Source: Candidatus Omnitrophota bacterium (lineage in GTDB: Bacteria; Omnitrophota; Gorgyraeia; S143-82). From it: a DNA stretch of 64,000 bases. Position numbers and translations under genes: made by a program. The DNA lies in contig WGBD01000007.1 of assembly GCA_015494465.1 (NCBI GenBank), forward strand, positions 67,009-131,008, read 5' to 3'. This document shows, piece after piece, positions 9,563 to 59,753 of the stretch (positions are counted from its first letter, which is position 1; the number at the start of each line of letters is the position of its first letter). A model generated the notes under the pieces. It ran no database searches. It saw nothing but the letters and a program-made list of their open reading frames with translations, and was not told the origin of the DNA.

Positions 9563-9563
9563 C

Positions 9564-34211: not shown

Positions 34212-34689
34212 AGTCCCTCTCTCCGTAGTGTTCCAAAGAGAACCTGATGGAATCAAACGACTTCCTCATCGGGAACCGCGGATGGGCAGGATCGTTGCCC
34301 TCGAATATAAACGGCTTATCGTAATCCGGATTCCCTGCGAAGTGGAGCCCGAACATCTCGTATATCTCCCTCTCGTAGAACTGCGCGTGGGGCCACAGGT
34401 GCATCACCGTGGGCTGGCGATCGGTTTCGTAATCCAACAGGCATGCCAGGAACAACCTCTGCTCCATAGAGAAGGAATAGAGGTTGTAAATCAACTCACA
34501 GTGCCTGTCGTCTCCCAGATCCACGCAGGTTATCGTGGCTAAGTAATCAAAGCCCGTCGCATAAAGGTCCTCTATTGCCTGCGGAACCTTATTCTTATCC
34601 AGCCGGGCGTAGAGGATCCCACCTGCCTCCTCTTTCACCTCTGCAGAGAGACTCTCTAAAAACCTGATTAAGTCCTTTTTATCCTTCAT
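34192..34689 (-). CDS. NuoC-like (30 kDa) subunit
   Basis: The 165-aa ORF has LATITCVDLGDDRHCELIYNLYSFSMEQRLFLACLL...ERE(I)YEMFGLHFAGNPD, typical of NuoC/MbhK. Confidence 0.8.
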   Translation of the reverse strand: MKDKKDLIRFLESLSAEVKEEAGGILYARLDKNKVPQAIEDLYATGFDYLATITCVDLGDDRHCELIYNLYSFSMEQRLFLACLLDYETDRQPTVMHLWPHAQFYEREIYEMFGLHFAGNPDYDKPFIFEGNDPAHPRFPMRKSFDSIRFSLEHYGERDYGGKKG

Positions 34690-34702
34690 ACCTCACACCT
34701 GC

Positions 34703-35248: not shown

Positions 35249-35265
35249 AATCTATACCTCCGACT

Positions 35266-39246: not shown

Positions 39247-39602
39247 CCCGCCAGATCCTTCAGTTCAGAGACATCGGTGGTACCAAACCGCCTGTGCATC
39301 CACACCGCCATCCCCAGCCCAACTGCCAGAAGACCGAGTCCTATGACGATAGCGGTGAGCACCAAGGCCTGGGGCACCGGATCCACGACCTTGCCGACTG
39401 CAGAGGCCTGCAGTTCCTTGCTGAACAATATTGGGGCAATCCTTCCCCGCACATAGCCGATACTGACGATGAGCAGGTTCACCCCCGACTCTAGTACCGA
39501 CAGACTTATCAGTATCTTTACAAAGTCCCGGTTCAGGAAGACACCCATCAGTCCCAGACCTATCAGAAACACGCTAAGGGCGTAGAAGTCAAGCGCGTTC
39601 AT
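39243..39602 (-). CDS. MrpC / NuoK-like (chain 4L) subunit
   Basis: The 119-aa protein has 3 helices. The motif LSVFLIGLGLMGVFLNRDFVKILISLSVLESGVNLLIV is characteristic of MnhC/NuoK. Confidence 0.8.
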   Translation of the reverse strand: MNALDFYALSVFLIGLGLMGVFLNRDFVKILISLSVLESGVNLLIVSIGYVRGRIAPILFSKELQASAVGKVVDPVPQALVLTAIVIGLGLLAVGLGMAVWMHRRFGTTDVSELKDLAG

Positions 39603-40314
39603 CCTCTTCTCCCGAACTGGTAAACCTCTCCAGTATCGCCACGAACTCGCTGGCCACCTTCACCCCAATGAAAGCGTACAGGACCGGCAGGACACCAGCA
39701 CTCAGCAGGGTCCCCGGTACACCCTTCGGACCGAAACTGTAGAGGAAACTCCCGTACTTCACCAATCCAACCAAGGCCAAGGCCACGAATCCTGCCCCCA
39801 TCAAAGACTCCAGGGCATGAACCAACCCCCCAAATCCGGACTCCTTCTCCCTCTTCAATATCAATTTAAGAAGGAGCCCGGAGGAGATAACGACACCACC
39901 CTGAAATCCCCCTCCCGGGCTCACATGCCCCTGAGAGACGATGTATATGCCTATCAGGATAATAAGATACGGAAGAAACCTGCTTGCCACCCGAAGGACG
40001 AAGTTCTCCTCCCTCTGCCACATACCTGCCCCCGGCAAGAGGAACAATCCCACTGCCATAGCGGAGGCGAACAGGACCGTAACCTCCCCAAGGGTATCCA
40101 ATCCCCGGAAGGACAACACCACCGAGGTAACCAGATTCGTGGCCCCGGTGGAATTCACACCCATCTTTATGTAGTCCTTAGACACCAGCATCTTATCCTG
40201 CCCGTAGGGAATCTGGGTGTAGAGCAGATATATTAACAGCCCGCTGAATGCAAGGACCACCAAGGAGGCGATTATACCCGATATGTCGTACTTCCTATTT
40301 ATCCCTTCCAGCAT
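39589..40314 (-). CDS. MrpB / MnhB-domain membrane subunit
   Basis: The MnhB domain is NSTGATNLVTSVVLSFRGLDTLGEVTVLFASAMAVG, followed by extra C-terminal helices. Confidence 0.7.
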   Translation of the reverse strand: MLEGINRKYDISGIIASLVVLAFSGLLIYLLYTQIPYGQDKMLVSKDYIKMGVNSTGATNLVTSVVLSFRGLDTLGEVTVLFASAMAVGLFLLPGAGMWQREENFVLRVASRFLPYLIILIGIYIVSQGHVSPGGGFQGGVVISSGLLLKLILKREKESGFGGLVHALESLMGAGFVALALVGLVKYGSFLYSFGPKGVPGTLLSAGVLPVLYAFIGVKVASEFVAILERFTSSGEEDERA

Positions 40315-40316
40315 AT

Positions 40317-40556
40317 CTAGTCCCCTCTGATACCCATCTTACGCAAGGCAAACAGGAAGAGGGCTGTGGACAGGCCTGCTGAAATCACCGCCTCCGCCAT
40401 GGCCACATCCGGTGCCTGTAGGAGATAGAAACTCGCGGTCAATCCCACGCTCGCCAAGGCCAGCGCTACCACCGACGAGACCCGCCCTCGGGAAAAGACC
40501 GCAATCGCTGCAGTAAATCCGGTGAACAAGACGACTGCAAGGTAAATGTAACCCAT
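40317..40556 (-). CDS. small MbhD-like / DUF4040-type membrane subunit
   Basis: The 79-aa ORF has 2-3 helices. Its position and size match the MrpA-C-terminal-like MbhD/MbxD subunit. Confidence 0.55.
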   Translation of the reverse strand: MGYIYLAVVLFTGFTAAIAVFSRGRVSSVVALALASVGLTASFYLLQAPDVAMAEAVISAGLSTALFLFALRKMGIRGD

Positions 40557-40557
40557 C

Positions 40558-40827
40558 CTATTCCCCTTCTCCCCTCACCGCACGGGCAAGGACCGAGGCA
40601 GACACCGGCGCCCCCACCAGCACCAGCACCATTATCACCAGCAACTCCAACCACCAACCCGGTTTCAGACAGATAACCCCCGCTATCGTGGCGATCACCC
40701 CGAGAGTGGATGCCTTGGTCCCCGCCTGAAGACGGTTGAATACATCCGGCATGCGCACCAGCCCCAACCCCGAAAGGGCCAAAAAGAGCGCACCCACTAT
40801 CACCAAGACATACCCCACCGAAATCAT
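40558..40827 (-). CDS. MrpG / MnhG subunit
   Basis: The MnhG signature is LGLVRMPDVFNRLQAGTKASTLGVIATIAG. Confidence 0.7.
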   Translation of the reverse strand: MISVGYVLVIVGALFLALSGLGLVRMPDVFNRLQAGTKASTLGVIATIAGVICLKPGWWLELLVIMVLVLVGAPVSASVLARAVRGEGE

Positions 40828-41066
40828 CGTTCGATAAACCTCCCCACGACGATGCTCCCTATAAAACTCACCGCGGAAAGGGCAAGGGCCACATCCAGAT
40901 AGATCCTTACTTCAAACTCAAGGGCCAAAAGTACCAGCACCCCAACCAACACCGTAGTAAGCACATCCACCGCCACCATCCTGTTGGCAAAGTCCGGGCC
41001 TATAACGAACCGCAGAAGAGAAAGACCCACCGCAATCGTCAACAAGGCCACCAAGACCGGAATCAT
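40824..41066 (-). CDS. MrpF / MnhF subunit
   Basis: The 80-aa ORF has the MnhF-like motif LRFVIGPDFANRMVAVDVLTTVLVG. Confidence 0.7.
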   Translation of the reverse strand: MIPVLVALLTIAVGLSLLRFVIGPDFANRMVAVDVLTTVLVGVLVLLALEFEVRIYLDVALALSAVSFIGSIVVGRFIER

Positions 41067-41413
41067 GACTCCATCCTCTTAAGGATCCTCTCAAACCGTC
41101 CGCAGATCAACTCCTTGGCCTTTTCCTGAGGATACATCCCCGCCTTTATCCAGTGAACGGTCAACTCCTGCTCCTCAACATCCAGGGTCATCGTTCCCGG
41201 CGTCAAGGTGATAGAATTGGCCAAGATGAACTTCAACCAATCCGACTTCAGGTCCGTCCTGACCTTTACGAATCCCGGAGATATAGGCAGGGAGGGATTT
41301 ATCACCCTCAAGGCCACATCCAGATTTGCCTTCACCATCTCCACTAGGAGCACCACCAAGTAGATTGGGAAATTTATCACAAACTTTATCATACAAACAA
41401 TCCCTTCCACCAA
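41063..41413 (-). CDS. MrpE / MnhE subunit
   Basis: The 116-aa ORF has the MnhE-like pattern (NLDVALRVINPSLPISPGFVKV...LANSITLTPGTMTLDVEE). Confidence 0.7.
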   Translation of the reverse strand: MVEGIVCMIKFVINFPIYLVVLLVEMVKANLDVALRVINPSLPISPGFVKVRTDLKSDWLKFILANSITLTPGTMTLDVEEQELTVHWIKAGMYPQEKAKELICGRFERILKRMES

Positions 41414-42908: not shown

Positions 42909-43514
42909 TCAGAAAAACGACTGGACCATGTCCCAGGCCACGAACTGGGCGAATATGTCCTCCGAGAGGGCGACCCGCCTGTACCCTAACGGGCGATCCT
43001 TCCAATCGAATAACTTTGCAAAGACCTTCATTCTGCTAACTATAAGGCGATTCTCGGTATCGTAATACCTGTGCCCATGGCAGATGGGATTTTCCACATT
43101 TACCAGAGGATAGAGCGTGGCATCAAATGCCACCGCCCGGGGATGGGCTGAATAATCGGCCAAGAATCCCAACACGAAGCCGTCCGCACTCAACTTCGTC
43201 GCTATCGCCTCGGCCTTCTTTGGGGTTATCACATACCCGCTTGCCTCACCCACAAGCTCCCGTACGAGCCTGGGATGAACCACGAAGACCTTCCGCCTCT
43301 CTATCAGATACTCGACGAAATACCTATAAACCTTATCCTTAAAGGCAGGGGGCACCGTATCATCTCCTGCGAACTCGAATACGACTATACGCTCTACCTG
43401 GTGGGAAAGCTCCGGAGGTCCGGGCAGGGGTAGAGATTGATCTACCTTTCCCCGTATACACCCCCCTGCAAACACGAGGGCCTGAAGCAAAAGCACGCAA
43501 AGGAATCTAACCAT
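42909..43514 (-). CDS. hypothetical lipoprotein
   Basis: The signal peptide ends in a lipobox-like FAGGC (MVRFLCVLLLQALVFAGGCIRG). No recognisable domain. Confidence 0.4.
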   Translation of the reverse strand: MVRFLCVLLLQALVFAGGCIRGKVDQSLPLPGPPELSHQVERIVVFEFAGDDTVPPAFKDKVYRYFVEYLIERRKVFVVHPRLVRELVGEASGYVITPKKAEAIATKLSADGFVLGFLADYSAHPRAVAFDATLYPLVNVENPICHGHRYYDTENRLIVSRMKVFAKLFDWKDRPLGYRRVALSEDIFAQFVAWDMVQSFF

Positions 43515-43881
43515 TCATTACCTTTTCTATCTTCTCCTTGAGTATCTCAGGAGTAAACGGCTTGACGATGTAATCGTTTACCCCCAGCTGGAGGGCCTCC
43601 ATGACCTCGTTCTTCTCTGCCTCTGTGGTCACCATTATAACCGGAACGGTACCAAACTTGTCCGAGGCCCTTATGGATTTCACCAGCGTAATACCATCCA
43701 TCTCAGGCATGTTCCAGTCAGTCAACACCAAGGAGATGTCCCCTTCCTTGAGTTTGGTAAGGGCATCTATACCGTTTTCTGCCTCCACCACATCCGAATA
43801 CCCTATCCGCTCCAGCGTATTCTTTATAATCCTGCGTATCGTAGCGGAATCGTCAACCACCAACACCTTTGACATAATCAC
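43507..43881 (-). CDS. cheY: CheY-like single-domain response regulator
   Basis: The motifs are KVLVVDDSATIRRIIKN, LVLTDWNMPEMDG and DYIVKPF (D-D...D...T...K). Confidence 0.85.
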   Translation of the reverse strand: MIMSKVLVVDDSATIRRIIKNTLERIGYSDVVEAENGIDALTKLKEGDISLVLTDWNMPEMDGITLVKSIRASDKFGTVPVIMVTTEAEKNEVMEALQLGVNDYIVKPFTPEILKEKIEKVMNG

Positions 43882-44710
43882 TGACCTCCGTTATTCTTAC
43901 TCCGAACTTCTCCCCCACCGTAACCACTTGGGCCTTGGCAATAGACTTGCCGTTGAGCACTACATCCACCGGTTGAGAAACATACTGAGGGAACTCTATC
44001 ACTGACCCCGGATTCAAGTCCCAGAGCTCCTGGAACACCATACTCTTGTTGGCCAAGACCACCGAGAGCTGAACCATGACATCCGGGACATCTTCTACTG
44101 GACTTCCCGCTTCAACCCCCTTTTGCTCCCCGGAATCCTGCGCCTTTGCTTCGAACTCTTCTAACTGGGCAGACAACTCCCCCAACATGTCACTGGCGAG
44201 CTTTTCGCCCAATTGGGTGGGCACGATGTGCCAGAAGTGAGAACTCACCTTGCCCTCGTCCAGTCTAAACTGCATCTCTATGAAGACGACGTTGCCCTCG
44301 AACTCCGGCACCCCATCTACCACCGAACCCGGCACGCACTTCAGATTCTTTCGGCTTATCAGCATAGCCAGTGTCTCGTTTATCCCCTCCGCCATCCCTT
44401 GGGATAGGGCCGATTCGGGAGAGTCCGCCTTCCCTGAGGAGTCTATCGCAGAAAGGAGATAATCCAGATCGTCCTTCTTAAACACGAAAGCCATCTCCCC
44501 ACCGTAATCGCCCGAATACTCCATAACAACCGCCGTTTTGGCCCCTTCTGGCAGTTTGGCCATCGCTTCTGAGAACGGCAATTCCTCCGCCTTGGGTTTT
44601 ATCATCTTCACCTGTATACCAGCGATCCCCTCTAGCTTGGTCGCCGCCGAACCCAAGGTTATGTTATCCAGCTCACACAAGGCATCCAGATACTCTGGGG
44701 AAAGAGGCAT
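43853..44710 (-). CDS. CheC-like phosphatase domain fused to a FliN/SpoA domain (FliY-like)
   Basis: The N-terminal CheC signature is ELDNITLGSAATKLEG (E-x2-N). The C-terminal FliN/SpoA domain is LNPGSVIEFPQYVSQPVDVVLNGKSIAKAQVVTVGEKFGVRITEV. Confidence 0.65.
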   Translation of the reverse strand: MPLSPEYLDALCELDNITLGSAATKLEGIAGIQVKMIKPKAEELPFSEAMAKLPEGAKTAVVMEYSGDYGGEMAFVFKKDDLDYLLSAIDSSGKADSPESALSQGMAEGINETLAMLISRKNLKCVPGSVVDGVPEFEGNVVFIEMQFRLDEGKVSSHFWHIVPTQLGEKLASDMLGELSAQLEEFEAKAQDSGEQKGVEAGSPVEDVPDVMVQLSVVLANKSMVFQELWDLNPGSVIEFPQYVSQPVDVVLNGKSIAKAQVVTVGEKFGVRITEVSDYVKGVGG

Positions 44711-44715
44711 AGCAA

Positions 44716-45105
44716 CTACTTCCTAAGGCGCTTTAGCCTGCGCAATACGTACTCCAACAGCTCCTCTTGATGCTTGGTGTATATGTCCACAAACTTTACC
44801 GCCACGCAGTGCTCCCCATTATCGTTTGTCCACTGCCGAACCACCTTCGCTAATGAGACTACCGGCCCAAATATCTGGTTCTCGGGTAAGGGTTTGTGAT
44901 AATCCGGTATCTGCACCTCTACCTTAAGCACATCCTGATCGTTAAGTGGGGCATCCACCACGAAGGCCACCCCGCCACCACTGATGTCGATAATCCTGCC
45001 CTCCTTCATTCGGGACTTCATTGGAATCTGTAAGACCTGATAGCGCAAGCGGATCTGTGAAGGGACTCTTGCATATCTCCTTCTCTCCTTAGCGTCCACG
45101 ACCAC
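44716..45105 (-). CDS. PilZ-domain (c-di-GMP-binding) protein
   Basis: The RxxxR motif sits in ERRRYARVP and the D-x-S-x-x-G motif in IIDISGGGVAF. These are the two c-di-GMP-binding PilZ signatures. Confidence 0.75.
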   Translation of the reverse strand: MVVDAKERRRYARVPSQIRLRYQVLQIPMKSRMKEGRIIDISGGGVAFVVDAPLNDQDVLKVEVQIPDYHKPLPENQIFGPVVSLAKVVRQWTNDNGEHCVAVKFVDIYTKHQEELLEYVLRRLKRLRK

Positions 45106-46972
45106 CGTTTCCTCCCGCTCGGGTTGCTGCCACCTTTCTTACCGCATGCGCTGACAACTGCATGACCCCCGTTATGTCGAGGATCAAGCAGACCCGCCCA
45201 TCGCCCATAATCGTTGCCCCGGCTATGCCCGGGACATTGGTGAGGAAACCTCCCAGCGACTTGATTACCACTTCCTGCTGGCCAAGCAGATCGGAGACCA
45301 AGATGCCCAATCTTTGCTCGGCCAATCCTATTATAACAACATAGCGCCGGGGAGTCTCCTCTATTTTTTCCGGCTCGTTGAAGACCTCTTCAAGGCATAG
45401 TAGAGGTATAACCATATCCCTTACGCGCACCACAGCCTGCTGCTCTATGGTGTAGACCTGCCCCTCGTCAAGGTGGATAATCTCCTGCACGGAAGCAAGG
45501 GGTATGGCGTATATGTCGTTATTGGATAGTACCATTAAGGCCTGGATTATAGCAAGGGTGAGCGGGAGCTTTATCTTGATCGTCGTCCCTTTACCCAACT
45601 CGGTATCCAATTCTATGACCCCGTTGAGCTTCTCGATGTTCGTCTTCACCACATCCATACCCACGCCTCGCCCAGAGACGTCGGTCACCTTTTCTGCAGT
45701 GGAGAATCCGGGCATAAAGATAAGGTTCAGGATGTCTCTATCTCCCATGTGGGCTAGATCGGACTCTTTCACGATACCCTTCTCTACCGCCTTCCTGGCC
45801 ACCTTCTGTACATCTATACCTCTACCGTCGTCGGAAACCTCTATGACTATGTGGTCTCCCTCCTGATAGGCGGAGAGCACGATAGTGCCCCTTCGGGGTT
45901 TACCCAACCTTTCTCTTTCTTCGGGTGGCTCTATCCCGTGGTCCACCGCATTGCGGAGTATGTGTATAAGCGGATCGCCTATGTGCTCTATCACCGACTT
46001 GTCTAACTCGGTCTCTTCACCGTGGATTATCAGATCTATCTCCTTGTGCATCTCTCTACACAGGTCTCGCACCATCCGAGGGAACTTGTTAAAGACCCGT
46101 TGGACCGGGAGCATGCGCGTCTTCATCACCGACAACTGCATCTCGGTGGTAACGAACCCAAGCTGTACCAAGGCATTATTAAAGGCGTCTACCAAGGCGG
46201 TGTCAGACACTTGGGCATCTATGTGCTCTGCCAATTGCCCTAGTCTATTCCTCACCAATACCAGCTCTCCAACCAGGTTCATCAACGCGTCCAGCCTTTT
46301 GACATCCACCCTTATAGTCTCCTCTATCCCACCCGCTGCGGCTCTCTTCTGAGGAGCAGGAGAAGGCTTCTGCGCATCAGACGGCGCCGGCTTTGGTTGT
46401 GCTTCCTGGGTCTGAGGAGAAACGGAGGACTGGGATTCCTGTTTTTGAGGTTTTTGCTCTTGTTGAGGGGGCTCTTTGCTCTCGGCCTCCGCAGGGGCAT
46501 GCTCTTCCGTGGCCTCTTCCTCTTTTCGTCTCTCCCCTTCTGCCTGAGGCTCTTCTTTCTCAGCGGGTTTCTGCGGAGGTTCCTCTACCGGAGCGGTCTC
46601 TCCCTCCAGTATTGCCTTCAGTTTGGCCTCGGTGTCACTGGTATCCACCGTGCCAGAGGTACCATTGCGCACCTCGTCCAAGAGCAACTTTAGCTTATCT
46701 ACCGACTCCAAGATGACATCCATTATCGTGGGAGTGACTACCATCTCCCCTTTTCTCAATTTGTTGAGGACATCTTCCATGTGGTGGGTCAATTGGGATA
46801 TCTGGGTAAAACCTAAGAAACCAGAGCTACCTTTAATGGTGTGGGCTGCGCGGAATATCCTGTTGAGGAGTTCGAGATCGTCAGGCCGTTCTTCAAGCGT
46901 AACTAGATCCTGATCCAATTGCTCCAACAACTCAGCCGACTCTACCAAAAATTCCTGGATTATCTCGTCCAT
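45089..46972 (-). CDS. cheA: chemotaxis histidine kinase CheA
   Basis: The P1 Hpt domain carries the phospho-His in AAHTIKGSSGFLGF. P3/P4 has HILRNAVDHGIE and VSDDGRGID, and a CheW-like P5 follows. P2 is replaced by an approximately 110-aa E/P/Q/K low-complexity linker. Confidence 0.9.
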   Translation of the reverse strand: MDEIIQEFLVESAELLEQLDQDLVTLEERPDDLELLNRIFRAAHTIKGSSGFLGFTQISQLTHHMEDVLNKLRKGEMVVTPTIMDVILESVDKLKLLLDEVRNGTSGTVDTSDTEAKLKAILEGETAPVEEPPQKPAEKEEPQAEGERRKEEEATEEHAPAEAESKEPPQQEQKPQKQESQSSVSPQTQEAQPKPAPSDAQKPSPAPQKRAAAGGIEETIRVDVKRLDALMNLVGELVLVRNRLGQLAEHIDAQVSDTALVDAFNNALVQLGFVTTEMQLSVMKTRMLPVQRVFNKFPRMVRDLCREMHKEIDLIIHGEETELDKSVIEHIGDPLIHILRNAVDHGIEPPEERERLGKPRRGTIVLSAYQEGDHIVIEVSDDGRGIDVQKVARKAVEKGIVKESDLAHMGDRDILNLIFMPGFSTAEKVTDVSGRGVGMDVVKTNIEKLNGVIELDTELGKGTTIKIKLPLTLAIIQALMVLSNNDIYAIPLASVQEIIHLDEGQVYTIEQQAVVRVRDMVIPLLCLEEVFNEPEKIEETPRRYVVIIGLAEQRLGILVSDLLGQQEVVIKSLGGFLTNVPGIAGATIMGDGRVCLILDITGVMQLSAHAVRKVAATRAGGNGGRGR

Positions 46973-47011
46973 CCCCCGCCCTCCTCATTCGCTAGGCGTC
47001 AGTAATCCACC

Positions 47012-47386
47012 TCAACTTTCACTAGCATTCAACAGGCTTCCAATCTTATAGAGGATCAGTGACGGTGGTGCTGGTTTGACCAAGTAGACATTCGCGCCAG
47101 CCTCGAATCCCCTCTTTTTGTCCTCGTCACTCCCCTCGGTAGTTAACATCACGATCGGTATGTCCGAATAAAGAGGATCTTTTCGAATAGTCCTTATTAG
47201 CTCCAGCCCATTCATCCTGGGCATGTTAAGGTCCGCTATTATCAGATCTATGTCCTCTTGAGCCAGCTTTTCTAAGGCATCCACCCCGTCAACTGCCTCC
47301 ACCGTCTCGTAATTGGCCCCTTTCAATATGTTACTTATCAACTTCCTTACCGTAGCTGAATCGTCCACCACCAATATCTTAGGCAT
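47012..47386 (-). CDS. CheY-like single-domain response regulator (second copy)
   Basis: The motifs are KILVVDDSATVRKLISN, LIIADLNMPRMNG and VYLVKPA. Confidence 0.85.
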   Translation of the reverse strand: MPKILVVDDSATVRKLISNILKGANYETVEAVDGVDALEKLAQEDIDLIIADLNMPRMNGLELIRTIRKDPLYSDIPIVMLTTEGSDEDKKRGFEAGANVYLVKPAPPSLILYKIGSLLNASES

Positions 47387-47406
47387 ATCCCGCCTCCCTG
47401 GTTTTT

Positions 47407-48252
47407 TTATTCCTTCTTATAAGCCAACGCCCCTGGGAAATGCACTATCTTGAAGGCTCTAGTTATGTTGTGCAACGATTCCGAATGACCGATAACCAAA
47501 TATCCGCCTATTTTCAATATATCATAAAAATGCCCAACTACCTTCTTCTTTACCGCGTCGTCGAAGTAGATCATCACATTCCTGCAGAATATCACATCTT
47601 TTTTCGTGATCCTGCGCATCTGATTGTCGTCGGTCAAGTTGAGATGATAAAACCGCACCATCCTCTTTATCTCATCTTTTATCCTATAATTATCTCCCTC
47701 TTTAGTGAAGTACTTGTTGAGATATTCCTTGGGGACATTCCTCAACGTATACTCGTTATAGACGCCCTCCCGGGCCTGGGCCAAGGCAGCCTCGCTGAGA
47801 TCACCTGCCTCTATCATTACCCTCCACCCCGCTGCCTTGGTATCCACGAACTCTTTACAAATGATCGCCAAGGTATAGGGTTCCTCACCAGTGGAACAGC
47901 CCGCGCTCAACAAGGTAAGGGTCTTAAATGTCTGCCTATCGGGCAAAGACACTAGTTCGGGCAAGATGTGATTTTTAAGTGCCTCCATCTGAGGTCGATT
48001 GCGGAAGAAACTGGTCTCGTTTATGGTTATAGCATTGAAGAGATACTTAAGTTCTTCCTTGTAGTCCTTCGAATAGAGTAAAAAATAGGCATACTCGTTA
48101 AAGTCGCGGAATCCCCTCTCTTTTATCCTCTCCAAGATCTTCGTCTCCAGCAAATACTTCTTGTTATCGCTGAAGTATATGCCGCTTTTTTCGTAGATAA
48201 AATCGCGCAAAGACTTAAATGTCTTATCGTCCATCTTGAGTGTAATAGACAT
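47407..48252 (-). CDS. cheR: chemotaxis protein methyltransferase CheR
   Basis: The N-terminal helical domain is FKSLRDFIYEKSGIYFSDNKKYLLETKILERI. The SAM-dependent methyltransferase fold has LLSAGCSTGEEPYTLA and IFCRNVMIYFD. Confidence 0.85.
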   Translation of the reverse strand: MSITLKMDDKTFKSLRDFIYEKSGIYFSDNKKYLLETKILERIKERGFRDFNEYAYFLLYSKDYKEELKYLFNAITINETSFFRNRPQMEALKNHILPELVSLPDRQTFKTLTLLSAGCSTGEEPYTLAIICKEFVDTKAAGWRVMIEAGDLSEAALAQAREGVYNEYTLRNVPKEYLNKYFTKEGDNYRIKDEIKRMVRFYHLNLTDDNQMRRITKKDVIFCRNVMIYFDDAVKKKVVGHFYDILKIGGYLVIGHSESLHNITRAFKIVHFPGALAYKKE

Positions 48253-48258
48253 ACCCCC

Positions 48259-49158
48259 CTACCCTCTAGTTATAGCTATGAATTCCTTTACCTTGTCTAT
48301 CTCGTTGTCCAGCTCAAAGGTGAATCTCTCGACATCTAGATCAGCAAGTTCCGGTTTTATCTTTTGTACCAAGGCCCAGGAAATGTCCTCTGCTAATACA
48401 AAGCCTTTTCTGTCACCTCCGTAACCTATGTCTTTGGCCTTACAGAACAGGTCCGCAATCCTGACCACCGCCACGGTAAGTGGCGATACCTCCGCCTCTT
48501 CGGGGTGGTGATGACAGGAGATTGCCTCCTGAATAGCAGGAGGAAGATTCCACTTTTCCGCCAAGACGAGCCCTACCTCTTCGTGGGTAAATCCAAGGAC
48601 CTCCTTTTCGACATCGTATATAGCCCTGTCCTCTTCCTGGGCCCGAGTAAATATGTCAGTGAAGACCTCGTGGGCCATCTCGTCCAACACTACCTTCCCT
48701 ATGTCGTGGAGAAGCCCACCCACGAACACCTCACCACTCAAAGCAGGAGATCCCAACTTCCGCATTATTATCCTGGCAAAGTGCCCACAACCCGCCGAAT
48801 GGATCCAGAACCTCTCCCTGTCAAAGGTCTGCTTGCCAGGGATGTCGGGAAAGGCAGAAAAGACCGAAACGCTCATAACCAAGTGGCTTATTTCCGACAT
48901 ACCCAAGACCACCAAGGCCAACTCTAAGGAATTGACCTGCTGTTTGAGACCGTAGAAGGCAGAGTTGGCGACTTTCAAGACCTTGGAGGTCAAGGCGGGA
49001 TCGGATTCCAATATCTTGGAGATCTCCTTCACCGAAGTCTTCGAGCTCATAGCCAGCTCCATCACCTGAGCTGCAACATGGGGGAGGGTCGGCAGGGACT
49101 CCAAATCCCCAATCAAGTCTATGATCTTGGTCCTTATCTCCGGAGATAGTTCCTTCAT
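48259..49158 (-). CDS. HDOD-domain protein
   Basis: The HDOD signature is LESLPTLPHVAAQVMELAMSSKTSVKEISKILESDPALTSKVLKVANSAFYG, with an HD-like LLHDIGKVVL. Confidence 0.8.
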   Translation of the reverse strand: MKELSPEIRTKIIDLIGDLESLPTLPHVAAQVMELAMSSKTSVKEISKILESDPALTSKVLKVANSAFYGLKQQVNSLELALVVLGMSEISHLVMSVSVFSAFPDIPGKQTFDRERFWIHSAGCGHFARIIMRKLGSPALSGEVFVGGLLHDIGKVVLDEMAHEVFTDIFTRAQEEDRAIYDVEKEVLGFTHEEVGLVLAEKWNLPPAIQEAISCHHHPEEAEVSPLTVAVVRIADLFCKAKDIGYGGDRKGFVLAEDISWALVQKIKPELADLDVERFTFELDNEIDKVKEFIAITRG

Positions 49159-49159
49159 G

Positions 49160-50227
49160 CTATTCCCTCGACTTTATCTTGTTGATAGCCTCCTCTGCCA
49201 GCTCCCTCTGCCGTTCGTCGTCCGAATTCTTAAACCGCTCCAGGACCTCGAGGCTAGCGCTGGTCCCGACCTCTCCCAATCCCTCTATCGCGGAAGCTAT
49301 TATCATGGGTTCTTCTACCGAGTTGAGGACATCGATAAGAATGTCCTCAGCACACTCGCCAAGCTTGGGAATCACATTGACTGCCCGATAAGCAGTCCAC
49401 CTATCGTCGGAGTACTTTATGTAGGCGCACAAGTATACCCCAAACTTGTACCTCAATCTCTTATCGTCTATGCTGTCTACCCTCAAGCCTAGCTCCACTA
49501 TATCAGAGTATATATCGGAAAGCTTCCGTGTCATCAGGTACTCGAACACATACATCGCATCGTAAATAAAGTCGTCGTCACCAAACTTCGCTATGCCATC
49601 CAAGAGGGACTTCAGAACGACCTCGTTATTCTCCTTAAATAAGGCCTTCCGCAGGACTTCTTTCGCTGAGGGCAGACCAATCTGGGTCAAGGCATCTATT
49701 ATGGAGAAGCGAACCCAAGTATCTTCCTCGCGATTCAACAGCTCCTCTAGGGCCTTTACCGCCCGTTCGCTCTTGACTCTCCCGATTCCCATCACCGCTG
49801 AGTTGCGCACATTCACTTCTGGATCGTCCAAGGCCTTTATCAGGTAATCCAGCGCAGATTCGGTGCCGAACTTGCCGATGATGTCGCACACGAATAAGCG
49901 CACATCTTTATCCTCGTCGTTCAAGTAAGCCCCTATTAGATCCACCTTGTCTCGTCCTATCTTTTCCAGGATCTCTATTGCAGCATTCCTTACCGAAGCA
50001 TTTTCTTCTCTCAAAAGGGGCAGTAATTTCTCCACGACTATCGGCTCGTTTCTCTGCATCAAGAACTCAATAACCGCCTCCTGAACCGCCTTGTTCTCGT
50101 CGTACAAGGCCTTCATCAACGAATCTATGATCGACTCTATGGGGAACTCGTTTGCAGATCTTATGGCCTCTCTTTTTTCCTCCGGAGTCCCTGATTCCAA
50201 CTGTGCCTTCCACATCTCTACATTCAT
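49160..50227 (-). CDS. HEAT-repeat (PBS-lyase-like) protein
   Basis: The sequence shows repeating approximately 30-aa units (NASVRNAAIEILEKIG, DKDVRLFVCDIIGKFG, EVNVRNSAVMGIGRV, DTWVRFSIIDALTQIG). Confidence 0.7.
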   Translation of the reverse strand: MNVEMWKAQLESGTPEEKREAIRSANEFPIESIIDSLMKALYDENKAVQEAVIEFLMQRNEPIVVEKLLPLLREENASVRNAAIEILEKIGRDKVDLIGAYLNDEDKDVRLFVCDIIGKFGTESALDYLIKALDDPEVNVRNSAVMGIGRVKSERAVKALEELLNREEDTWVRFSIIDALTQIGLPSAKEVLRKALFKENNEVVLKSLLDGIAKFGDDDFIYDAMYVFEYLMTRKLSDIYSDIVELGLRVDSIDDKRLRYKFGVYLCAYIKYSDDRWTAYRAVNVIPKLGECAEDILIDVLNSVEEPMIIASAIEGLGEVGTSASLEVLERFKNSDDERQRELAEEAINKIKSRE

Positions 50228-50238
50228 GAATCCACCTC

Positions 50239-51330
50239 CTATACCAAGGCCAATATCTCAGAAGCCATTCTTTCTATAGGGACCACCTTATCCGCCAAAC
50301 CTGCATCGACCACTGCCTTTGGCATGCCGTAGACAACAGAGGTGGCCTCGTCTTGAGCTAATACCTTTCCCCCCACCTTCTTCACCGCCCTGGCTCCTTC
50401 CAATCCATCCTTACCCATTCCAGTCAATATCACAGCCAATGTCTTTGGACCGTAGATCTCTGCGGAAGAGGTTATCGTTATGTCTATACAAGGATGATAT
50501 ATAGAGTCTTTCGGTTCCTCGGTTAGTACTACGGATACCTTTGACCCAAGTTTCCTCAACTGCATGTGATAAGCACCCGGTACCACCAATATCTTACCCG
50601 GCTCAAGAAACTCGCCCTGTTGGGCCTCTTTTACCAGCGGTCCCCCCAGGGACTTCAACCTATTGGCCAAGGCGCCGGTGAAGGTCGGGGGCATGTGTTG
50701 GATTATAATGCCCGGAACGGGAAGATCCTTCGGCAAACCGCTTATCAACTTCTGGAGCGCGGTTGGTCCACCGGTAGATACCCCAATCACTACTACATCC
50801 ACCAATCCCTTCCTCCCCCTCGCTGATGGGGCAGAAACAGCGCTTGGCCGAGCCTCGGGCTTGGCCTGGGGAGCGGTCTGAGTAAAAGCGCCAACTCGCT
50901 GGGCGAACTGAGCCTTTTTAAGTGCTATCAGCTTTATCTTCTCCAACAGCTGGGCCTCTATCTTCTCCAGATTTATCCCGGCTGATGCCCCCTGATATAA
51001 TTCCTTGGGGATGAAATCCACTGCTCCCAAGGAGAGGGCCTCCAATGTCACCTTCGCTCCCTCCCGGGTCAAAGAACTTATCATGATCACCGGGCGGGGA
51101 AAGTCCCGCATTATCACCTTCAAGGCCTCTATCCCGTTCATGCGAGGCATCTCAACATCAAGCGTCACCACATCGGGATCCAATTGCTTTACTTTCTCGA
51201 TAGCCTCTAATCCGTCGTGAGCGGTCCCTACTACCTTAATACTAGGATCCTTTTCTAAAATCCTGCTGATCGCTTTGCAAATGAATATTGAATCGTCTAC
51301 AACCAACACCTTGACCATGTCAACCCCCAT
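50239..51330 (-). CDS. cheB: chemotaxis response regulator protein-glutamate methylesterase CheB
   Basis: The N-terminal REC is VLVVDDSIFICKAI...VTLDVEMPRMNG. The C-terminal CheB_methylest domain has VVIGVSTGGPTAL...HMPPTFT...GMGKDG. Confidence 0.9.
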   Translation of the reverse strand: MGVDMVKVLVVDDSIFICKAISRILEKDPSIKVVGTAHDGLEAIEKVKQLDPDVVTLDVEMPRMNGIEALKVIMRDFPRPVIMISSLTREGAKVTLEALSLGAVDFIPKELYQGASAGINLEKIEAQLLEKIKLIALKKAQFAQRVGAFTQTAPQAKPEARPSAVSAPSARGRKGLVDVVVIGVSTGGPTALQKLISGLPKDLPVPGIIIQHMPPTFTGALANRLKSLGGPLVKEAQQGEFLEPGKILVVPGAYHMQLRKLGSKVSVVLTEEPKDSIYHPCIDITITSSAEIYGPKTLAVILTGMGKDGLEGARAVKKVGGKVLAQDEATSVVYGMPKAVVDAGLADKVVPIERMASEILALV

Positions 51331-51342
51331 TCTCTCGTCAAC

Positions 51343-52500
51343 CTAGAACTTAAAGCGACTTAACATGTGCATCAATTCGTGGGATAGCTCACTTAAATTA
51401 TTAGCAGATTCCTTTGCCTGAAATACCCCCTCTTGCACCTGAGAGGCAACTGCCTTTATGACCTCCATGGTCTTGGATATGTCTTCTACCGCAGCGGTCT
51501 CCCTTTCAGCGAACACATTTATCGGTTCCATCAATTGCTGGGTTTGTTCAGCCCGAGCGCTCATTTCCTTTATGATCTCCCCGGTCTTGTCGATCATAGT
51601 CTCCGCTTCCCCAACCTTAGATCTAGCTGACTCCACGGAACCCAGGACGCGCTCGCTCCTTATGTGCAGATTATCTATCATCTCCGCCACCTCTTTAGTG
51701 GCCTGGGCTGTCTTCTCCGCGAGCTGTCTCACCTCATCCGCGACCACTGCAAATCCTCTTCCGTACTCCCCAGCTCGGGCTGCCTCTATAGCTGCATTCA
51801 AGGCCAATAAGTTCGTCTGATTGGCTATGTCGTCTATCGTCTCTATTATCTGGCCGATCTGTCCGAAGCTCTCCCTCAACTCCTCCGCGTTGTGGGCCAT
51901 AACTTCAACTTCTCCAGAAACGTCCTTCATCTTGGATATTCCATCTTCTATCCTATTCACGCCTTCCCGGGCTATCTCCAAAGACTTCTCCGCCGCATCG
52001 CTTGCCTGGCGAGCGTTTTCAGAGACCTCAAGTATAATGGAGGTTATCTCCCCGATCTTCACTGCCGCCTCGGAGGTCTCTTTAGTCTGAGTTTCGGTTC
52101 CACGACTTATCTCTTCGGAGATCTGGGATAGCTCTGCTGCTGCAGTAGCAAGGCGGGTAATGTTGGCCTGGACATGACCCAACAACTCTTTTACCGACGC
52201 AAGCATGGTATTGTAGGCCTTGATCAAGTCCCCTATCTCGTCGTCTGAGTAAACGGCTATGATCCGAGTGAAGTCCCCTTCTCCCATGGAGAGAAGGGAG
52301 TTCTTGAGGCGCAAGAGAGACGAAACTATGTTGTTGGAAAGCAAATATCCGAATATGTAGGCAACTACCATGTTTATGGACAAATTCACTACCAGTGCCA
52401 TGTTCTGATTGTGTATCCACTTATGGGCAACCCATCCCACCAATGCAGCAAACAAGACATTGCCCATTATCCCCAGATGAATCTTAGTCCCTATCTTCAT
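51343..52500 (-). CDS. methyl-accepting chemotaxis protein with two TM helices and no periplasmic sensor domain
   Basis: Two N-terminal helices are separated by only a few residues. A HAMP-like segment is followed by the MCP signalling domain ([32 protein letters not shown]). Confidence 0.85.
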
Positions 52501-52521
52501 CCCCCCTCCTTGCTCCCGGAA

Positions 52522-53022
52522 TCAGAAGTTACTCAACATGCTCTTTTCCTCTTCGGTCATAAACTTCTCGATGTCGATTATTATGATCAACCTATCTTCT
52601 AACTTGCCCACCCCTTTTATGCACTGGGCGTCTATAGAAGTTGAGATCATGGGAGGTGTGGGATCTATGGTCTCCTTGGGTAAGCGCAAGACTTCCGATA
52701 CGCTATCCACTATGAGCCCAACGGTCTTCCCCTCTATGTCCACTACTATTATGCGGGTCTCTTTCGTGTTTTTGGGCTCTAGGCCAAAGCGCTTTCTAAG
52801 GTCAAGGACCGGGATCACCTTCCCTCGCAGATTCACCACCCCTTCGACGAAGTATGCGGAATTCGGGACATGGGTGATCTCCATCATCCTGTTGATCTCT
52901 TGGACCTTAAGGATGTCTATCCCGTACTCTTCTTCTCCTAAGGTAAAGCTTACCAACTGAACGATCTCACTGTCTCGCTGTCCGGCTGTTTGTTCTTTGT
53001 TATTCACCTCGTTCATCTCCAC
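52522..53022 (-). CDS. cheW: chemotaxis coupling protein CheW
   Basis: The 166-aa ORF has the CheW-fold motifs (LVSFTLGEEEYGIDILKVQEI, VVNLRGKVIPVLDLRKRFG). Confidence 0.85.
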   Translation of the reverse strand: MEMNEVNNKEQTAGQRDSEIVQLVSFTLGEEEYGIDILKVQEINRMMEITHVPNSAYFVEGVVNLRGKVIPVLDLRKRFGLEPKNTKETRIIVVDIEGKTVGLIVDSVSEVLRLPKETIDPTPPMISTSIDAQCIKGVGKLEDRLIIIIDIEKFMTEEEKSMLSNF

Positions 53023-53033
53023 CCCTCCCCATT

Positions 53034-53912
53034 TTACTTTTTCCTTATGATATCTAAAAACTCCCGCATACCCTCGAATTGCGAGACGGTTTCGGACAAT
53101 ATGTAGTCCAAGCCTGCCAGATCCAACCTCAAGAGAGATAAAATATTCTTGTTTATGTCAGGCACATAAGGATCACCCCCATTGCCTAGACCGACTAAGC
53201 GAGCTAGGGCATCGGAGACGGACACAACCGCCACGCTTTGCAGGTACTTACCATCGTACTGAACTACAGAATGGTGCCAAGTCACCACATCGACTACATC
53301 TGGAGGCAGGTTCCAGCGGTCGAACACCAAGCCCCCAACTACGCTGTGATTAAAACCCAAGATCTCCTCTTCCGCCTCCCTCAAAGGTATGTCTTTCTCT
53401 TCTCTATGGCTCAAAACCGTCTTATAGTACTCCTTCCCATAGTAATCCATTATCAACTTGCCCACATCGTGGAGGAGTCCGAATATGAAGTGCTCCTCTA
53501 CATTGGGAAGGCGTAAGTACTTCGCAATGGACTTGGCCACGACCCCCACGCCAACCGAGTGCTCCCAAAATCCTTCCACATCGAACCCTATCGCATTCTT
53601 GCCGTCCTTGAATACCTCCAATATAGAGGCGGTAAAGATGGCAGCCTTGAGTCGATTGAACCCCAATATTACCAAGGCATGATCTATCGTCTTTATCTGC
53701 CTAGGAAAGCCGTAAAAGGCAGAGTTGACGATTCTTAATATCCTGGAGACCAAAGATTGGTCCTGACTTATTATCCGAGCTACCTCTCGAGCTGAGACCC
53801 GAGGATCACTAAGCATGGGGATCACCTTGGCCAATACCTGGGGAAGTGTGGGGATGTTAACTATCTGCTCTAGCCTATTTTTTATGTGCGGAGGTATGGG
53901 CTTGCTGGCCAT
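53034..53912 (-). CDS. HDOD-domain protein (second copy)
   Basis: The HDOD signature is IPTLPQVLAKVIPMLSDPRVSAREVARIISQDQSLVSRILRIVNSAFYG, with LLHDVGKLIM. Confidence 0.8.
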   Translation of the reverse strand: MASKPIPPHIKNRLEQIVNIPTLPQVLAKVIPMLSDPRVSAREVARIISQDQSLVSRILRIVNSAFYGFPRQIKTIDHALVILGFNRLKAAIFTASILEVFKDGKNAIGFDVEGFWEHSVGVGVVAKSIAKYLRLPNVEEHFIFGLLHDVGKLIMDYYGKEYYKTVLSHREEKDIPLREAEEEILGFNHSVVGGLVFDRWNLPPDVVDVVTWHHSVVQYDGKYLQSVAVVSVSDALARLVGLGNGGDPYVPDINKNILSLLRLDLAGLDYILSETVSQFEGMREFLDIIRKK

Positions 53913-54247
53913 TACTTGCCTGAACCCCTGATAAGCAGACGATACCTTATCGCTAATAATTTAGCCTGTTCTTTCAGGTCTTCATCATTAGGACAACAGA
54001 ACTTTAGGGCCCTTTCCACCTCTTCTTTCAGATCCTCCGGTGCGGTCTTTTCTTTCTCCTTCAGGATGTCGATGAGGACATTCTCACCTTCTACCGTTGC
54101 GAACTCAAGCCGAGGGAACTGCCTTATCTTGGCGATGTCCTCCTCCTCCAACACCTTACCAGCTGGGAAGAGCACATTCCCCCCTTCTAACACCAGATTC
54201 TCCGCCAATACCATACCTGGTTTTAGGTCTTCCACCCGCACTCGCAT
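53912..54247 (-). CDS. hypothetical protein (111 aa), first gene of the chemosensory operon
   Basis: The ORF is compositionally coding, has an acidic/lysine-rich C-terminal half and shows a 1-nt junction with the downstream HDOD gene. No recognisable domain. Confidence 0.35.
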   Translation of the reverse strand: MRVRVEDLKPGMVLAENLVLEGGNVLFPAGKVLEEEDIAKIRQFPRLEFATVEGENVLIDILKEKEKTAPEDLKEEVERALKFCCPNDEDLKEQAKLLAIRYRLLIRGSGK

Positions 54248-54248: not shown

Positions 54249-55874
54249 TCACTTGCCCTGCTTCAACAACCTCTCGTACATGCGTTTGTACTCGCGGGCA
54301 CTACGGGACCAAGAGAAGTCCAACTTCATCGCCCGTTTTACCCTCTCCCGCCATCCATCTGCGTCTCGAAAGACCTCAAGAGCAGACTCCAAAGAAGATA
54401 ATAAATCAGCCCCTGTCGCTTTGTCAAATAGGAACCCCACATCCTCGGGGATCGTATCCACAAGCCCGCCGGTCCTCCTGGCCACTGGCAAGGCTCCGTA
54501 GCGCATCCCTATCATCTGGGTAAGCCCGCAGGGCTCGTACCTAGAAGGGACGACCACCACATCTGCCCCCCCGTAGAGCCTGTGGGCCAAGGGCTCGTTA
54601 AATTCAACGAAACTCCTAACCTTATCAGGGAACCGCCCCGCCAGATCCGAGACCATGGCCTCGAATCGGGCCTCGCCCCTGCCCAATATCACCAGACCGA
54701 CCTTTTCCCGGGGAAGGAGCTCTTGGAAAGCCGAAACCAAGACGTCGATCCCCTTCTGCTCCACCAACCGCCCCACGAAGACCGCAAGCACATCTACAGC
54801 CTTGAGACCGAGCTCTTCCAATAGTCGGACCTTGTTAACCGCCTTCCCCTTTAGGAAACAGCGATTTGCCCTCACGCCAAACTTGTCCGGGAGGTAGGGA
54901 TCGATCCAAGGATTCCAGTAGTCGTAATCTATCCCATTGATAATCCCTTCCAGTTTTGCCTTGTGGGTCCTGAGGACACCGTCCAACCCCCAGCCGTACT
55001 CCGGGGTCTGTATCTCCTTGGCGTAGCGGGGACTTACGGTAACCACCTTGTCGGCATACACTATCCCTGCTTTCAGGCAATTGCCCTTGCCGTAGAACTC
55101 TATCCCCTGATAGGTGAAGTAGGACCAATCCAGGCCCAAAAGATAGAACTTCTCCACCGGGAACAGGCCCTGATAGGCGATGTTGTGTATGGCAAACACC
55201 ACTTTGGTGGAGGAATAAAATGGGTCCTCGGAATAAAAGGCCTGCTTAAACAAAGGTAGCAATCCCGTCTGCCAGTCGTTGCAGTGGATTACATCCGGGC
55301 GATAATCCAGCCTCTTCAACAGCTCCAACGCAACCTTGGAGAAGAAGGCGTACCTCTCTAGATTGTCCGGGTAGTCTCCCGAAGAGGTCCCGTAGATTCC
55401 CTCTCTAGCAAAAAACGGATCGTACCTGACCAGATAGTACTTTACCGGTCCAATCTCAGTCTCCTCTACGGAGGCCTCTAGCCAATGGGATCCGATAGGA
55501 GAGCTTATCTTGATACCCGTATCCCTGAGGTTAAACGCCTCTCTATCGATCACCGAATATGCAGGGAGGATCACCACGCTAGAGAGTCCCAACTCGCTCA
55601 AGGCCTTAGGCAGAGCGCCCACCACATCAGCCAATCCCCCAACCTTCACCAAGGGCACCGCCTCAGAGGCAACGAATGCGACCTTCATCTGCTTTCGAGA
55701 GCGAGAGGAGCTTTTTCTGGCGGTTTTAGAGGTGGATACCTTATTATCCGACTCCACCGACCCCTTGCTCTTCCTCGGGCCTGTCCCCGTTTCTTTCTTT
55801 TTCACCTTCGCAGAAGAGCCCTTTCCCCTCCTCTGTGGCTTACTAACGGACCTTTTAATTACCCTCTTCGCCAC
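54249..55874 (-). CDS. glgA: glycogen synthase GlgA with an approximately 60-aa lysine/serine-rich N-terminal extension
   Basis: The GT5 core starts at MKVAFVASEAVPLVKVGGLADVVGALPKAL, with a C-terminal GT-B part (LVDTIPEDVGF...). The GTG at 55872-55874 is preceded by GGTGGAGGG (SD). An alternative ATG at 55686-55688 lacks an SD. Confidence 0.85.
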   Translation of the reverse strand: MAKRVIKRSVSKPQRRGKGSSAKVKKKETGTGPRKSKGSVESDNKVSTSKTARKSSSRSRKQMKVAFVASEAVPLVKVGGLADVVGALPKALSELGLSSVVILPAYSVIDREAFNLRDTGIKISSPIGSHWLEASVEETEIGPVKYYLVRYDPFFAREGIYGTSSGDYPDNLERYAFFSKVALELLKRLDYRPDVIHCNDWQTGLLPLFKQAFYSEDPFYSSTKVVFAIHNIAYQGLFPVEKFYLLGLDWSYFTYQGIEFYGKGNCLKAGIVYADKVVTVSPRYAKEIQTPEYGWGLDGVLRTHKAKLEGIINGIDYDYWNPWIDPYLPDKFGVRANRCFLKGKAVNKVRLLEELGLKAVDVLAVFVGRLVEQKGIDVLVSAFQELLPREKVGLVILGRGEARFEAMVSDLAGRFPDKVRSFVEFNEPLAHRLYGGADVVVVPSRYEPCGLTQMIGMRYGALPVARRTGGLVDTIPEDVGFLFDKATGADLLSSLESALEVFRDADGWRERVKRAMKLDFSWSRSAREYKRMYERLLKQGK

Positions 55875-55886
55875 TTTCCCTCCACC

Positions 55887-59753
<3,867 letters not shown>

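Follow-up and report, generated by a model that had tools for sequence, protein, structure and literature searches.

A 14-gene chemotaxis operon, strictly conserved in a deep Omnitrophota lineage and probably of flagellar type, with a predicted c-di-GMP receptor and HDOD and HEAT accessory proteins

Introduction

PilZ-domain proteins place chemotaxis and motors under the control of cyclic diguanylate (c-di-GMP), as exemplified by MapZ, which acts on CheR1 in Pseudomonas aeruginosa, and by YcgR in Escherichia coli. Here we analyze a block of chemotaxis (che) genes that includes a PilZ gene and occupies positions 42909-54247 (minus strand) of a 64,000-nucleotide (nt) stretch of DNA, hereafter the window, from Candidatus Omnitrophota bacterium (assembly GCA_015494465.1, contig WGBD01000007.1, positions 67,009 to 131,008). 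Background on c-di-GMP, chemotaxis and PilZ proteins is given elsewhere (PMC3861689, PMC5677366); in the literature searched, we found no description of a che operon with a PilZ gene within it.

The described systems that come closest to the block each share a part of it. Class F3, exclusive to Campylobacterota, is defined by cheVAW, a CheA carrying a receiver (REC) domain and a CheB lacking one, and its cognate receptors belong to the 40H or 28H class (PMC9321776). The alpha-group che clusters of Geobacter, described in 2008, include stand-alone HD-domain genes whose function was left unassigned (PMC2577667). In Halobacterium, the HEAT_PBS protein OE2401F, encoded in che regions, interacts with Che proteins and is required for motor switching (PMC2666748). 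As to CheA architecture, more than half of CheAs lack the P2 domain and carry a disordered linker, among them those of Campylobacter jejuni and Helicobacter pylori, while CheAs with multiple Hpt domains or a fused receiver belong mostly, though not always, to the type IV pili (Tfp) and alternative cellular functions (ACF) classes (PMC10542144).

Results

The block is genuine: its 14 genes form a strictly conserved chemotaxis operon of a deep and barely sampled lineage. Open reading frame (ORF) listing and Pfam scans, used to check the gene set, bore out all thirteen minus-strand genes of an original prediction made from the DNA letters, with their order, domains and coordinates: a small protein of 111 residues (hyp111), an HDOD protein (HDOD1), CheW, a methyl-accepting chemotaxis protein (MCP), CheB, a HEAT-repeat protein, a second HDOD protein (HDOD2), CheR, CheY (CheY1), CheA, PilZ, a CheC/FliN protein and a second CheY (CheY2). 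A lipoprotein-like protein of ~200 residues is counted as the 14th member because its gene is conserved together with the block. The same order, headed by glgA, was found on ten related contigs (L082, L084/85, L086/87 and L088, and partially L089-L091) as far as each contig extends, comprising five full arrangements on seven contigs and three shorter metagenome contigs, each covering only part of the block in a matching order. The glgA gene lies upstream of the che genes in each of the five relatives mapped in full, and the lipoprotein gene follows cheY2 in every relative whose contig is long enough; beyond it, the genomic context varies.

Sequence identity between the window and its relatives differs widely among the block proteins, from 87-96% for CheY2, the most conserved one, over 83-88% for CheW, 73-80% for CheA, 55-72% for HDOD1, 42-69% for PilZ and 43-48% for the CheC/FliN protein to 27-48% for the lipoprotein and 31-36% for hyp111. 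This spread, combined with perfect synteny, argues for selection on the arrangement as such. Full-length homologues of the CheC/FliN protein numbered only 13 among 5.8 billion proteins, and every locus fetched displayed the same arrangement. The ATP synthase beta subunit (AtpD) encoded nearby is 92-93% identical within the lineage and at most 78% identical to sequences from a mix of Omnitrophota and Clostridia.

From hyp111 to CheY2, the junctions measure, in gene order and with overlaps as negative values, -1, 11, 21, 12, 11, 1, 6, 20, 39, -17, 5 and -29 nt, and thus range from -29 to +39 nt across the thirteen genes. They had been described as 0-20 nt or overlapping, which holds for most of them but not for the 21 nt between the CheW and MCP genes or the 39 nt between cheY1 and cheA. 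The 17-nt overlap of the PilZ gene with cheA, also part of the original prediction, is exact in the window, whereas relatives have a 2-nt gap at the same junction. The lipoprotein gene overlaps cheY2 by 8 nt, and the gap between glgA and the block is 1 nt.

CheA (45089-46972) comprises Hpt, dimerisation, HATPase and CheW-like domains according to Pfam. It has a single Hpt domain (His44) and no fused receiver, the protein ending after the CheW-like domain. There was no Pfam match to P2, and a low-complexity linker of 114 residues, 68% of them E, P, Q, K or A, takes its place. A missing P2 and a linker of about 110 residues had been noted before; the observation was right, yet the trait is ordinary, since more than half of CheAs are devoid of P2 (PMC10542144). 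The only MCP (51343-52500; Pfam HAMP and MCPsignal) has two adjacent transmembrane segments (residues ~7-25 and 35-54) connected by a loop of ~8 residues and followed by HAMP, and has no periplasmic domain, in agreement with the earlier description; a C-terminal extension is likewise absent. From Glu245 at the hairpin tip, 140 residues lead to the C-terminus and ~141 back to the end of HAMP; arms of 140 residues and the lack of a C-terminal extension assign the receptor to the 40H class. Its best NCBIfam match is P. aeruginosa CtpM, aligned end to end. The remaining core components are CheW (52522-53022; 166 residues; Pfam CheW 9.7e-42), CheR (47407-48252; Pfam CheR_N and CheR) and CheB (50239-51330; Pfam CheB_methylest), the latter retaining an N-terminal receiver (Response_reg, residues 8-111).

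To place CheA, we considered the best matches listed among species-representative genomes, whose loci carry L0xx labels. Its core is ~47-57% identical to all groups of relatives among these matches, which include the Campylobacterota cheV-cheAY-cheW loci of class F3 (54.7%), Geobacteraceae cheW-cheA-cheR-HDOD-cheB-HDOD loci (54.6%), a Deferribacteraceae locus (L074; 56.7%) and HEAT-cheR-cheY-cheY-cheA-cheB(-cheW-HDOD) loci of Nitrospirota, Desulfobacterota, Ignavibacteriales, Zixibacteria and Calditrichia. Locus L074 reads flhA-flhF-flhG-fliA-cheB-fliM-fliY/N-cheY-cheZ-cheA, with a STAS-HEAT protein encoded directly upstream of its cheR. In a neighbour-joining tree of CheA, the window lineage was monophyletic in 100 of 100 replicates. 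The same tree placed the Geobacter alpha group as its sister, with a bootstrap value of only 44/100, so we do not claim this relationship. As for the classes ACF and Tfp, the block CheA is neither multi-Hpt nor receiver-fused, and the cluster contains no gene for a non-flagellar output (a GGDEF regulator, PilG/H with pilus genes, or a transcription factor), only two stand-alone CheYs.

The CheC/FliN protein (43853-44710; 285 residues) matched Pfam FliMN_C at 1.5e-18 and, weakly, CheC/CheX. Its CheC-type phosphatase site, D9-x3-E13-x2-N16-x22-P39, is invariant in all 13 family sequences, and the second CheC site is degenerate. The AlphaFold2 model reached a predicted local distance difference test (pLDDT) score of ~90 over residues 1-190, and with this model Foldseek returned Thermotoga maritima FliY (4hyn; E 3.6e-12, TM score 0.74 on the target) as the top PDB match, followed by CheC and then FliM. 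By sequence, the C-terminal domain matched T. maritima FliN at 1e-11 versus YscQ at 5e-4. Beyond the lineage, its closest full-length relatives (25-27% identity) are encoded directly after fliM, as confirmed for locus L092 with the operon motA-motB-fliL-fliM-fliY, and fliY is adjacent to cheY in the flagellar locus L074 of Deferribacteraceae as well. From its sequence and predicted fold we thus assign the protein to the family of FliY-type switch phosphatases, as a homologue with FliY architecture and a predicted phosphatase role. We refer to it as FliY-like rather than as a FliY orthologue because its best NCBIfam model, flagellar motor switch phosphatase FliY, scored 83.8 bits, below the cut-off of 218, and because there is no fliM in the window. 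The original prediction had stated that flagellar genes are absent from the window; this is debatable given that the CheC/FliN gene belongs to the FliY flagellar-switch family, although no others were found there.

CheY2 (43507-43881) scored 154 bits with H. pylori CheY1, 135 bits with Vibrio cholerae CheY3 and 129 bits with E. coli CheY, versus 83 bits with V. cholerae CheY4, which is not known to control the motor. Its identity to E. coli CheY is 50%, and it contains D10, D11, D55, T85, Y104 and K107, that is, all phosphorylation residues and the equivalent of Tyr106. By its match scores and residues, CheY2 is a motor-type CheY. CheY1 (47012-47386), a single-domain receiver according to Pfam, likewise has its phosphorylation residues (D8, D9, D52, T83 and K104), and in PDB it scored much the same with the different CheY types (99, 92 and 88 bits). 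It is a generic phosphorylatable CheY and a candidate for a phosphate sink or a second output.

Taken together as proxies, the nearest CheAs among the matches listed, CheY2, the FliY-like protein and the 40H MCP point to a block of flagellar type. The pathway had been predicted to be Chp/Frz/Wsp-like and to control surface behaviour rather than swimming. This is not supported, given a CheA with one Hpt and no receiver that is ~55-57% identical to flagellar CheAs, the class of the MCP, the motor-type features of CheY2 and the presence of a FliY homologue.

The PilZ protein (44716-45105; 129 residues, single domain) matched Pfam PilZ at 1.9e-10 with 41 bits, above the cut-off of 22.5. Its motifs, RRYAR at residues 9-13 (R9-x3-R13) and DISGGG at 40-45 (D40-x-S-x-x-G45), are intact, as had been predicted, and on alignment RxxxR and DxSxxG are preserved in five of five orthologues. 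Homologues amount to only 13 proteins, apparently all of this lineage. Among solved PDB chains, the best match by sequence was Alg44 at E 0.15, and there was none to MapZ or YcgR; the N-terminal PilZN domain of YcgR-type proteins is absent, as only PilZ was matched. Since the binding motifs are intact and conserved, c-di-GMP input via this protein, with binding predicted, is a reasonable inference. The original prediction had gone further and proposed a stoichiometric c-di-GMP input or output on CheA; the input part is in line with the motifs, but for CheA as the specific partner the basis is adjacency alone, and the FliY-like gene is equally close.

With hidden Markov models (HMMs) of the lineage, no homologues of PilZ, hyp111 or the lipoprotein were found in related che loci. 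Two PilZ HMM hits in such loci (E ~1e-3) did not hold, and a check of L052 gave no Pfam domain. PilZ, the FliY-like protein, hyp111 and the lipoprotein would thus be, judged by these searches, additions specific to the lineage. The lipoprotein (42909-43514; 201 residues, signal peptide to Cys19) had no match in Pfam, NCBIfam or PDB. For hyp111 (53912-54247; no Pfam match), 7 matches were obtained among 1.84 billion representative proteins, making it almost an orphan. Over 47 N-terminal residues it resembles the C-terminal tail found in REC-HD-GYP c-di-GMP phosphodiesterases (NCBIfam NF053512, E 8.6e-8; protein P0175), and a helical part follows; the AlphaFold2 model has a pLDDT of 90.6, with no fold match in PDB. 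The gene overlaps the next HDOD gene by 1 nt, and the two together look as if a protein of HD-GYP type had been split and permuted.

Both HDOD proteins, HDOD1 (53034-53912; 292 residues; Pfam HDOD 1.4e-62) and HDOD2 (48259-49158; 299 residues; 3.4e-61), with Pfam scores of 211 and 207 bits, keep the H...HD...H...HH motif residues on alignment. The lineage HMM of HDOD2 matched Geobacteraceae loci at E ~1e-70, and the HD-domain protein encoded in the alpha-group che clusters of Geobacter appears to be the closest counterpart of HDOD2. In PDB, its best match was 3hc1 (E 1e-32), and solved HDOD structures of unknown function matched as well, including C. jejuni Cj0248.

Between the genes for CheB and HDOD2 lies that of the HEAT/PBS-lyase-type repeat protein (49160-50227; 355 residues; Pfam HEAT_2 1.7e-65). 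HEAT proteins adjoin cheR in ~21 related loci from several phyla, with the HEAT gene directly upstream of cheR in L074 (16197-18442, a STAS-HEAT fusion in the Deferribacteraceae flagellar/che locus) and in L045, L050, L051, L053, L057, L062, L063, L066-L072, L075, L078 and L080. HEAT and HDOD proteins occur together in at least five other loci of this CheA clade (L053, L067, L069, L071 and L078). In the literature searched, we found no description of bacterial HEAT-cheR pairs. In the Nitrospirota che locus L045 (1351-5238), two REC-HD-GYP genes lie directly upstream of the HEAT gene. Since REC-HD-GYP lay beside HEAT in this locus alone, we discarded the idea that c-di-GMP enzymes generally accompany related clusters. 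HDOD and HEAT proteins, then, occur widely across che clusters yet are uncharacterised. The statement that HDOD-HEAT-HDOD inside a che operon is not a described module stands insofar as no function has been described, but there are precedents for its parts in the HD(HDOD) proteins of the Geobacter alpha group (PMC2577667), in HEAT_PBS proteins of haloarchaeal che regions (PMC2666748) and in the at least five loci just named.

Pfam scans of the flanks identified an ATP synthase operon, a DUF4140/DUF4139 protein and glgA upstream of the block, and TatD, ThiF and a Mrp/Mbh-like membrane complex downstream. In the upstream region (54249-58903, minus strand), no atpC follows atpD; in its place is the gene for the DUF4140/DUF4139 protein (55887-57491), which overlaps atpD by 4 nt, and then glgA. 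A promoter-like site on the minus strand, TTGACA-18-TATTAT (54398..54427), lies inside the 3' end of glgA, ~150 nt upstream of hyp111; its 11 of 12 consensus positions are a consensus match only, as the count of such sites across the region does not exceed the expectation from shuffled sequence. No terminator-like site was found at either end of the block. The Mrp/Mbh-like complex (33105-41413, minus strand) includes MnhE/F/G, MbhD/E, two antiporter-like and NuoH-, NuoB-, NuoC- and NuoD-like subunits, and a tyrosine recombinase gene is located at 31878-32780.

Further away, the region 3828-18902 (minus strand) contains an exosortase (EpsH) and EpsI-like pair, a sigma-54 response regulator, a histidine kinase, a secretin with an STN domain, a protein resembling component C of the type II secretion system (T2SS) and polysaccharide genes, and looks like an exopolysaccharide (EPS) locus of the PEP-CTERM/exosortase type. 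The secretin (3828-5588), the prepilin-type gene (18917-19324) and the EPS locus, cited originally in support of surface behaviour, do exist, but they lie 24-40 kb from the che block, with housekeeping genes in between. In three relatives, pilin-like (N_methyl), PilN-like or PilM-like genes are found 5-9 kb downstream of the che block (L084 17734-20882, L086 17527-20864, L088 15701-16687). In relative L082 (11802-20846), the che block is followed by an ORF of 2021 residues and one of more than 10,500 residues, with no Pfam domains on record.

Discussion

We consider it probable that the block is a complete flagellar-type chemotaxis operon with a c-di-GMP receptor and accessory layers added. 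The sensor-less 40H receptor would assemble with CheW and CheA in the membrane, and CheA, via His44, would phosphorylate CheY2, which would then act on a switch of FliM/FliN type in a flagellar motor presumably encoded elsewhere in the genome. The FliY-like protein could be anchored there via its FliN domain and dephosphorylate CheY2-P at its single intact CheC site, while CheY1 may serve as a second phospho-acceptor, either as a sink or as an auxiliary output, and CheR and CheB would provide adaptation. PilZ would most likely render the output of the pathway c-di-GMP-dependent by binding a neighbour, be it CheA, the FliY-like protein or, with MapZ as the precedent, CheR. The two HDOD proteins, the HEAT protein and the small protein with the HD-GYP-like tail might function as accessory scaffolds or regulators.

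Several findings weigh against such an assignment. Apart from the fliY-like gene, flagellar genes were absent from the 64-kb window and from the flanks of the fully mapped relatives. The fliY-like gene has no adjacent fliM and is fast-evolving, as reflected in the low identities among relatives, and the SpoA domain of its product scored almost equally with the NCBIfam models for FliN and SctQ. The position of CheA among F3, Geobacter alpha and Deferribacteraceae has a best sister support of 44/100, and the Geobacter alpha-group cluster is itself without an assigned function (PMC2577667). The pilin-, PilN- and PilM-like genes of L084, L086 and L088, suggestive of a type IV pilus or a T2SS-like system, fall outside the conserved block.

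The missing flagellar structural genes, the nearby pilin-like genes of the three relatives and a fast-evolving fliY-like gene separated from fliM could all be explained if the lineage had no flagella and the CheC-FliN protein, CheY, PilZ and the HDOD proteins had been co-opted to control a non-flagellar output, such as type IV pili, secretion or exopolysaccharide, in conjunction with c-di-GMP. Such an explanation could also draw on the secretin, the prepilin-type gene and the exosortase/EPS locus in the window, on PilZ, HDOD and the HD-GYP-tail-like protein all being of c-di-GMP-associated families, and on the single MCP being sensor-less. We nevertheless regard it as rather unlikely. There is no synteny between the block, whose downstream context varies, and the pilus, secretin and EPS genes, which in the window are remote from it; the block encodes neither an output enzyme nor a transcription factor. 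CheA has neither multiple Hpt domains nor a receiver, an architecture typical mostly of Tfp and ACF systems (PMC10542144), and its nearest counterparts among the matches listed are flagellar (F3 and L074). CheY2, half of whose residues are identical in E. coli CheY, scored highest with H. pylori CheY1, and the motor-binding CheYs ranked far above V. cholerae CheY4.

At the other extreme, the block might be an ordinary flagellar che operon in which PilZ, the HDOD proteins, the HEAT protein, the small protein and the lipoprotein are mere neighbours without a role in the pathway. Its boundaries are indeed blurred, with the ATP synthase operon, glgA, the che genes, TatD and ThiF following each other on one strand with gaps of 1-12 nt or overlaps, and neither block end has a terminator-like site. 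We rate this possibility low, as improbable, because the extra genes lie in between the che genes instead of being appended to them, and on every related contig they occupy precisely the same places while what lies downstream varies. HEAT-cheR and HDOD-che associations, moreover, turn up independently in Nitrospirota, Desulfobacterota, Geobacteraceae and Deferribacteraceae, and motor switching in Halobacterium depends on a HEAT_PBS protein (PMC2666748).

A more far-reaching scenario, which we view as quite unlikely, would be that the lineage has no flagellum and that the FliY-derived CheC-FliN protein, the motor-type CheY and PilZ were re-wired to another machine, such as a pilus or secretion apparatus, and/or that HDOD-HEAT-HDOD together with the HD-GYP-tail-like protein constitutes a cytoplasmic, c-di-GMP-linked input module replacing the missing ligand-binding domain of the receptor. 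If true, the HDOD-HEAT-HDOD input module would represent a new way of feeding signals into a chemoreceptor array.

Under the favoured interpretation as a flagellar-type operon, the block brings together, in one strictly conserved operon, a c-di-GMP receptor and a switch-type CheY-P phosphatase, both predicted, and three uncharacterised accessory families. Its context nominates direct partners for HDOD proteins and for bacterial HEAT proteins encoded beside cheR. As HEAT-cheR and HDOD-che associations extend across Nitrospirota, Desulfobacterota, Geobacteraceae, Deferribacteraceae and the present lineage, a function solved in one of them would inform many, and the role of the HDOD and HEAT proteins would also bear on the Geobacter alpha-group clusters left unexplained in 2008.

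Among described systems, class F3 of the Campylobacterota H. pylori and C. jejuni shares with the block the CheA core (~55% identity), the lack of P2 and the 40H receptor. The best solved match of CheY2 is H. pylori CheY1, C. jejuni has the HDOD protein Cj0248, and the FliY-like HMM matched an unannotated ORF of 285 residues beside fliM in a Helicobacter locus, where the pairwise match was confined to the FliN domain. However, the block has no cheV, its CheA has no receiver and its CheB has kept one, which places it outside F3 as defined (PMC9321776). It also differs in that all genes are united in one operon instead of being scattered, and in the presence of PilZ, HEAT, two HDODs, hyp111 and the lipoprotein. 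The alpha group of Geobacteraceae (PMC2577667) has the same cheW-cheA-cheR-HD(HDOD)-cheB(-HDOD) set, a CheA core at 54.6% identity and the HDOD2 HMM match, but its clusters lack mcp, cheY, HEAT, PilZ and fliY-like genes; with an mcp and two cheY genes, the block does not belong to this group.

More components are shared with the HEAT-cheR-cheY-cheY-cheA-cheB(-cheW-HDOD) clusters in metagenome-assembled genomes of Nitrospirota, Thermodesulfovibrionia, Desulfobacterota, Ignavibacteriales, Zixibacteria and Calditrichia, namely HEAT, CheR, both CheY types, CheA, CheB, CheW and one or two HDODs, with identities to the block of up to 66% for CheW and up to 60% for CheY2. These clusters, for which we found no description in the literature searched, differ in their gene order and in the size of the HEAT protein (~600-690 residues), and PilZ, the FliY-like protein, hyp111 and the lipoprotein were not found there. 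The FliY proteins of Bacillus subtilis and T. maritima and the fliM-fliY-cheY operons resemble the FliY-like protein and its setting in the CheC-like and FliN domains, the intact first motif and the cheY gene directly downstream. The FliY-like protein, in contrast, has no adjacent fliM, a degenerate second site, no separate N-terminal CheY-docking peptide and a score of 84 versus 218 bits. OE2401F of Halobacterium salinarum (PMC2666748) resembles the HEAT protein of the block in consisting of HEAT repeats only and in being encoded in a che region, but it is archaeal, works with CheF and the archaellum, and homology beyond the repeats is not demonstrable. Finally, the PilZ protein differs from MapZ and YcgR in the lack of a sequence match, the lack of PilZN and the location of its gene inside the che operon. 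It has in common with them that it is a small PilZ protein with canonical motifs, so placed that it could couple c-di-GMP to a 40H-receptor chemotaxis pathway, and thus represents a candidate case of c-di-GMP acting within a chemotaxis pathway in a manner distinct from MapZ and YcgR.

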